Of a stretch of DNA of 64,000 nucleotides, positions 20,682 through 21,320 are shown piece by piece (the first letter of the stretch is position 1; each line of letters begins with the position of its first letter). The stretch comes from Escherichia coli (GTDB taxonomy: Bacteria; Pseudomonadota; Gammaproteobacteria; Enterobacterales; Enterobacteriaceae). The notes below the pieces were generated by a model. The model was given only the letters and a program-made list of their open reading frames with translations. It searched no databases and had not been told where the DNA came from. Both the position numbers and the translations under genes were made by a program. The stretch lies in the NCBI RefSeq assembly GCF_003790525.1, contig NZ_CP033635.1; one strand, 5' to 3'.

Positions 20682-20858
20682 GTGAAACAAAGCGAGTTCA
20701 GACGTTGGCTCGAATCTCAGGGCGTCGATGTAGCGAATGGCAGCAACCATTTAAAACTGAGGTTTCATGGGAGGCGCAGTGTCATGCCGCGTCACCCCTG
20801 CGATGAGATTAAAGAACCATTGCGTAAAGCAATCCTGAAACAACTCGGTTTGAGTTAA
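20682..20858 (+). CDS. hicA: Type II toxin HicA (mRNA interferase), GTG start
   Basis: 58-codon frame MKQSEFRRWLESQGVDVANGSNHLKLRFHGRRSVMPRHPCDEIKEPLRKAILKQLGLS; below ORF-track cutoff; immediately upstream of hicB. Confidence 0.88.
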   Translation: MKQSEFRRWLESQGVDVANGSNHLKLRFHGRRSVMPRHPCDEIKEPLRKAILKQLGLS

Positions 20859-20882
20859 TCGCCAATTAAAAAGGTTAATGAC

Positions 20883-21320
20883 ATGCGAGAGACAGTCGAA
20901 ATTATGCGTTATCCCGTCACTCTTACACCCGCGCCGGAAGGCGGTTATATGGTTTCTTTTGTGGATATCCCTGAAGCGTTGACCCAGGGCGAAACAGTTG
21001 CTGAAGCGATGGAAGCGGCAAAAGATGCTTTACTGACCGCATTTGATTTTTATTTTGAAGATAACGAGCTTATCCCGTTACCTTCGCCATTAAACAGTCA
21101 CGATCACTTTATTGAAGTGCCTTTGAGCGTCGCCTCTAAAGTATTGCTGTTAAATGCTTTTTTACAGTCAGAAATCACTCAGCAAGAGTTAGCCAGGCGA
21201 ATTGGCAAACCTAAACAGGAGATTACTCGCCTATTTAATTTGCACCATGCGACAAAAATCGACGCCGTCCAGCTCGCGGCTAAGGCGCTTGGCAAAGAGT
21301 TATCACTGGTGATGGTTTGA
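20883..21320 (+). CDS. hicB: Type II antitoxin HicB (alternative start at 20904 gives 138 aa)
   Basis: ORF with HicB fold plus C-terminal DNA-binding region (ITQQELARRIGKPKQEITRLF); 24 bp after hicA. Confidence 0.88.
   Translation: MRETVEIMRYPVTLTPAPEGGYMVSFVDIPEALTQGETVAEAMEAAKDALLTAFDFYFEDNELIPLPSPLNSHDHFIEVPLSVASKVLLLNAFLQSEITQQELARRIGKPKQEITRLFNLHHATKIDAVQLAAKALGKELSLVMV

Follow-up and report, generated by a model that had tools for sequence, protein, structure and literature searches.

The gene pair located between yncJ and ydcR in the analysed window (a stretch of 64,000 nucleotides of Escherichia coli DNA) is, by sequence comparison, almost certainly the chromosomal hicAB type II toxin-antitoxin operon of this species, intact and at its usual site, a reading to which we assign a probability of about 0.97. 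The first-pass annotation had identified it as hicAB, a toxin-antitoxin pair of type II whose first gene encodes the toxin, and this is borne out by the Pfam matches, the identity to PDB chains and the RefSeq annotation, while both the ORF list and RefSeq have the toxin gene directly 5' of the antitoxin gene, with both genes on the plus strand (Table 1). The hicAB genes found here are already described and already annotated in public genomes, and there is nothing new at the locus itself: E. coli hicAB is among the best-characterised type II toxin-antitoxin systems, and because its genetics, regulation and crystal structures have been published and the copy in the window is protein-identical to the reference, the locus is of little discovery value.

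Table 1. Features of the hicAB locus and its upstream region (window coordinates; a full stop marks a feature without strand).
Feature	Position	Strand	Source
hicA–hicB pair	20682-21320	+	ORF list, Pfam, PDB, RefSeq
hicA CDS, GTG start, 58 codons and TAA stop, mRNA interferase toxin HicA	20682-20858	+	ORF list, Pfam, PDB, RefSeq
hicA Shine-Dalgarno sequence GGGAGG, 4 nt before the GTG	20672-20677	+	sequence reading; identical in K-12
hicB CDS per RefSeq, ATG start, 138 codons and TGA stop, HicB antitoxin/autorepressor	20904-21320	+	RefSeq SMS-3-5 and K-12; PDB 6HPB_B
Optional 7-codon N-terminal extension MRETVEI of HicB, longest-ORF start	20883-20903	+	ORF list; in 6U0I_A
N-terminal domain of HicB, binds HicA, partial RNase H-like fold	20910-21104	+	PF15919
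HicB C-terminal Xre-type HTH, DNA-binding and dimerisation	21165-21305	+	PF01381
Perfect inverted repeat GTAAACA-ctaa-TGTTTAC, candidate hicO	20632-20649	.	inverted-repeat search; identical in K-12
Extended -10-like TGaTATACT, candidate promoter P2	20655-20663	+	sequence reading
Upstream part of the yncJ-hicA intergenic region, expected seat of P1 and CRP-S	20461-20631	+	identical to K-12 from 20500 on

The ORF list agreed with the earlier description of a GTG-initiated HicA frame of 58 codons in strand, coordinates, start and length, and RefSeq has hicA at the same coordinates in both SMS-3-5 and K-12. A search with HicA and HicB profiles, which had been proposed as a check on the identification, placed HicA_toxin, HicB_lk_antitox and HTH_3 all above their Pfam gathering cut-offs. 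The HicA translation scored 30.9 bits against HicA_toxin (PF07927, cut-off 27) with residues 5-57 of 58 covered, and was identical over 58/58 residues to chain A of PDB entry 6HPB ('mRNA interferase toxin HicA', E=1.9e-36). By this identity to a solved chain HicA is assigned a dsRBD-like fold, which PMC10865869 describes for that chain. Residue His23, the only catalytic residue known for E. coli HicA (PMC8138530), is in place in the translation (A18-N-G-S-N-H23-L-K-L), and Jorgensen et al. 2009, as related by papers citing that study (PMC11594946), reported RNase activity and, upon expression, arrest of growth for K-12 HicA, which has the same sequence. Searches with the NCBIfam HMMs gave no match for HicA, HicB or YncJ, so the names given by PGAP must derive from another type of rule, and this result is not evidence against the identification; the PADLOC defence models likewise gave no match for HicA, and only sub-threshold HTH-like matches for HicB.

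Two defects had been singled out beforehand as potentially fatal to a functional toxin gene, the lack of a functional ribosome binding site and inactivating substitutions relative to K-12 hicA, and both can be ruled out: GGGAGG precedes the GTG by 4 nt, and hicA differs from its K-12 counterpart at only two nucleotides, both of them synonymous. The GTG startcodon itself lies within the sequence ATGTGA (20680-20685), with an out-of-frame ATG 2 bases upstream which is followed at once by a TGA; this start-stop mini-ORF uses the same Shine-Dalgarno sequence as hicA, and is identical in K-12.

For HicB, the prediction of an RNase-H-like fold with a DNA-binding tail proved correct in both the Pfam and the PDB comparisons, with a partial RNase-H-like N-terminus and an HTH tail. 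The 145-aa ORF matched HicB_lk_antitox (PF15919) with 32.8 bits (cut-off 27) over residues 10-74 and HTH_3 (PF01381) with 31.4 bits (cut-off 23) over residues 95-141, and was identical to 6U0I chain A at 145/145 residues and to chain B of 6HPB and 6HPC ('Antitoxin HicB') at 138/138 residues. The fold of the N-terminal domain, its contact with HicA and the role of the HTH have been described for the identical K-12 protein (PMC10865869).

The two lengths reflect two possible startcodons. In SMS-3-5 and in K-12 (NP_415955.2), RefSeq starts hicB at the second ATG (20904), 21 nt downstream of the first (20883), and the 24-bp gap between hicA and hicB given in the first-pass annotation thus holds when counted to the first ATG, but becomes a 45-bp spacer with the RefSeq start. 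Production of HicB from the ATG at 20883 (145 aa, 24-bp spacer) instead of from 20904, or production of both isoforms, is an unlikely alternative. The ATG at 20883 is preceded by the better SD-like element, AAGG at a distance of 8 nt, compared with a weak GAGAGA 11 nt before 20904, and the 145-aa protein was stable enough to give crystals (6U0I). However, the RefSeq curators chose 20904 in both K-12 and SMS-3-5, the structure of the HicAB complex (6HPB) was built on the 138-aa HicB, and distant HicB homologues begin their alignment at query residues 7-10. This last comparison was a tblastn search of plasmid records with the 145-aa ORF, in which the MRETVEI residues fell outside most of the homologue alignments, and the diverged homologues aligning from residue 7-10 were from Variovorax, Arsenophonus, Geminocystis, Piscirickettsia, Pseudomonas and enterobacterial plasmids; the MRETVEI extension is therefore not a feature of the family. 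We thus keep to the 138-aa HicB starting at 20904 as the preferred form.

The genomic surroundings are those of other E. coli chromosomes. Over the 1,101 bp around hicAB, the window does not differ from E. coli SMS-3-5 or from many other E. coli chromosomes (100% identity), and positions 1-32631 of the window are the reverse complement of positions 1730001-1762631 of NC_010498.1 (SMS-3-5), with zero mismatches. The gene order in the RefSeq annotation of SMS-3-5 is rlhA, yncJ (minus strand), hicA, hicB and ydcR, and the same order is found in K-12 MG1655 (b1435-b1439), where hicA is b4532 (formerly yncN) and hicB is b1438 (formerly ydcQ). Both proteins in the window are identical to those of MG1655 and of the structures 6HPB, 6HPC and 6U0I, and the neighbouring genes, the stretch between 20500 and the GTG, the GTG startcodon, the Shine-Dalgarno sequence and the inverted repeat are also shared with K-12. 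The differences from K-12 consist of the two synonymous substitutions in hicA, approximately 11 substitutions in hicB, a few SNPs in the flanks, and a TGA stopcodon of hicB in the window versus TAA in K-12; the hicB substitutions are silent, as HicB has the same sequence as the crystal chains derived from K-12.

The expectation that automated calls would show HicB as an orphan antitoxin was correct for an ORF list with a floor of 60 aa, but not for PGAP, as hicA was annotated in all the top genome matches listed; in each of these, including SMS-3-5, the label was 'type II toxin-antitoxin system mRNA interferase toxin HicA'. With a floor of 60 aa, hicA (58 aa) and other small toxin genes stay hidden, and scans built on such ORF tracks will keep 'rediscovering' genes like this one, which PGAP already calls. 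Another gene below this floor is ortT ('orphan toxin OrtT', 28785-28958, plus strand, 57 codons and a stopcodon), which is adjoined by yncL (31 aa, 28495-28590). The window also contains a second toxin-antitoxin locus, of another type than hicAB, where the sok antisense RNA (3771-3922; RF01794, 105 bits) adjoins the annotated type I toxin gene hokB (3627-3776) on the minus strand. A full-length match to the small RNA RydC was found on the minus strand at 3148-3211 (RF00505, 92.5 bits). The SMS-3-5 ydcO gene (BenE-family transporter, 14867-17515), which is intact in K-12, is split by an IS4 element with its transposase gene at 15252-16580, and the two ydcO pieces (14867-15166 and 16595-17515) are annotated as pseudogene fragments. 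Finally, a SECIS_3 element at 59599-59657 on the plus strand (RF01989, 84.3 bits) points to a selenoprotein gene containing an in-frame TGA, probably the formate dehydrogenase-N gene fdnG.

We expanded the comparison to 5,426 complete E. coli genomes, using the 1,101-bp hicAB region as query. Almost all of them (5,416/5,426) matched at least part of this query, and 4,217 covered 80% or more of it. Two decayed alleles were found at the same chromosomal site and with the same flanks, at 95-98% nucleotide identity to the window, which itself carries the intact form. The first has a 445-bp deletion (equivalent to 20637-21081 of the window), with the junction present in at least 1,093 of the 5,426 genomes (at least 20%). 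This deletion has one end within the left arm of the inverted repeat and takes out hicA completely, together with the first third of hicB, which is left as a pseudogene, and strains with this allele such as UPEC-455U thus lack hicA, the right arm of the candidate operator and the HicB N-terminus, with half of the candidate operator gone. The second is a 22-bp deletion between TGCG direct repeats (equivalent to 20799-20820), which causes a frameshift in hicA while leaving hicB intact, and its junction was present in at least 606 of the 5,426 genomes (at least 11%), including IAI1. Strain C7 also has the 22-bp allele, and its HicB has the same accession (WP_001270286.1) as that of the window. 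An 81-bp probe over the part of hicA affected by the 22-bp deletion was covered for 80% or more in 3,438 genomes (63%), which puts the intact allele at about 63%, and rare larger deletions fuse rlhA to ydcR. Overall, hicA has been lost by at least two independent deletions, which between them affect 31% or more of the complete E. coli genomes. That type II toxin-antitoxin loci are spread unevenly over the E. coli phylogroups had already been reported (Fiedoruk et al. 2015, as cited in PMC7167474), and hence the polymorphism of hicAB alleles is not new in kind.

In the lineage with the 22-bp frameshift, HicB has kept its exact protein sequence and its promoter. It is conceivable, if rather improbable, that HicB has a toxin-independent role, for instance as a transcription factor, or that hicA has been counter-selected in some lineages, neither of which would be simple neutral decay. 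The C7 hicB gene differs from that of the window by 11 silent substitutions and encodes a protein with the same accession, but these differences may predate the hicA frameshift, and are therefore no proof of selection on an orphan HicB. For chromosomal toxin-antitoxin loci, intactness needs to be checked strain by strain.

With decayed alleles this common, hicA in the window might also be a decayed or silent remnant, with HicB an orphan regulator, a state shared by about one third of E. coli genomes. We consider this very improbable for the window, which has neither the 22-bp nor the 445-bp deletion: the frame is open from the GTG to the stopcodon, all 58 residues are those of the crystallised K-12 toxin including His23, and K-12 has the same Shine-Dalgarno sequence and the same promoter region between 20500 and the GTG. 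It is hardly credible that the real product is one of the two overlapping frames (54 aa at 20642-20806 on the plus strand, or 34 aa at 20646-20750 on the minus strand) and that the HicA frame is incidental, as, although both ORFs exist and the 54-aa ORF is initiated by ATG where hicA has only a GTG, neither is annotated in RefSeq (SMS-3-5, K-12), the 54-aa ORF was dropped as a candidate product for having no Pfam match, and it is the HicA frame which matches a solved structure and in which the differences from K-12 within hicA are silent. This leaves an intact hicAB operon as the preferred reading of the locus.

A search of the 440 bp from 20461 to 20900 gave two inverted repeats, and only the one at 20632-20649 has closely spaced arms (4 nt), making it the candidate hicO operator which HicB would bind; PMC10865869 describes hicO as an inverted repeat that lies within the promoter region. 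The extended -10-like sequence at 20655-20663 is a candidate for P2, and a transcript starting approximately 7 nt past it would begin at about 20669-20672, which is at the GGGAGG of hicA. The transcript of the autoregulated promoter was reported to be truncated at the hicA ribosome binding site and to yield only HicB (PMC7167474; PMC6957337), and the positions of the candidate hicO and P2 would fit the published descriptions of both. The sequence from 20500 to the hicA GTG is 100% identical to that of K-12, so that whatever was mapped there in K-12 is also present in the window, and both P1 and a CRP-S site have been reported for K-12 (PMC11594946; PMC8138530).

P1 and the CRP-S site could not be placed within this region, as a scan of 20440-20700 with the CRP-S (TGCGA-N6-TCGCA) and CRP-N consensus sequences gave a best 16-mer which still had 4/10 mismatches. 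A generic scan for σ70 promoters and terminators called neither a promoter upstream of hicA, the candidate P2 included, nor a terminator, and the three promoter-like matches which it gave are no excess over the mean of 2.1 in shuffled sequences. With Rfam at a permissive threshold, the region 20400-21420 gave only a chance snoRNA match (E=0.2, 22.8 bits versus a gathering score of 47), and the predicted fold of the hicA leader and start (20640-20730) gave no sign of a regulatory RNA structure (z=+0.43 versus shuffles). A 7-nt inverted repeat (CTTTGTT/AACAAAG) around the Shine-Dalgarno sequence and start was dropped as a candidate because of this z-score.

The mechanism proposed for the window is transferred from the literature on K-12, with identical proteins and identical promoter DNA (from 20500 to the GTG), and by this analogy HicA would have RNase activity and be neutralised by HicB, HicB would be sensitive to Lon, and the two-promoter logic would hold here as well. 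HicA would act as a 58-aa RNase with a dsRBD-like fold, cleaving mRNA independently of translation, and HicB would be a fully folded antitoxin, whose N-terminal partial RNase-H-like domain would pack on the HicA beta-sheet and mask His23. The HTH would dimerise HicB to give an A2B2 complex, and would bind the inverted-repeat operator hicO. The packing of HicB on HicA, the cover of His23, the A2B2 complex and the binding to hicO were described in PMC10865869 and PMC8138530. At the level of transcription, the upstream promoter P1 with its CRP-S site would be stimulated by CRP-Sxy and give the full hicAB mRNA, whereas the downstream promoter P2 would be repressed by HicB and derepressed by excess HicA, with a transcript starting from the hicA ribosome binding site and giving HicB only (P1/P2 control: PMC11594946, PMC8138530, PMC6957337). 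Since the toxin gene precedes the antitoxin gene, the two promoters would keep the ratio of toxin to antitoxin safe. HicB would be degraded by Lon, and published data include the induction of hicAB transcription by amino-acid and carbon starvation in a Lon-dependent manner, as well as the degradation of HicB by Lon (PMC11594946; PMC10865869). Whether chromosomal hicAB serves in stress response, persistence or phage defence is still debated in published work (PMC11594946; PMC10865869).

When compared with other HicAB systems, the E. coli operon shares its autoregulation with systems in which HicB is of the RHH (ribbon-helix-helix) kind, such as HicAB of Burkholderia pseudomallei, HicBA of Streptococcus pneumoniae and HicA3B3 of Yersinia pestis. 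In these systems HicB also represses its own promoter via palindromic operators, and excess HicA relieves this repression (PMC11594946, PMC8138530, PMC10865869). They differ in that their HicB has a ribbon-helix-helix domain and other oligomeric states, whereas HicB in the window has an Xre-type HTH, and E. coli hicAB is the only system for which control by two promoters has been worked out (PMC11594946). A regulatory analogue is found in the toxTA locus of Haemophilus influenzae, which also has the toxin gene first and a CRP-S/Sxy-activated upstream promoter, together with a downstream promoter which is repressed by the antitoxin and whose transcripts yield only antitoxin (PMC6957337). There is no sequence homology between toxTA and hicAB, with ToxT and ToxA belonging to the RelE/ParE families (PMC6957337).
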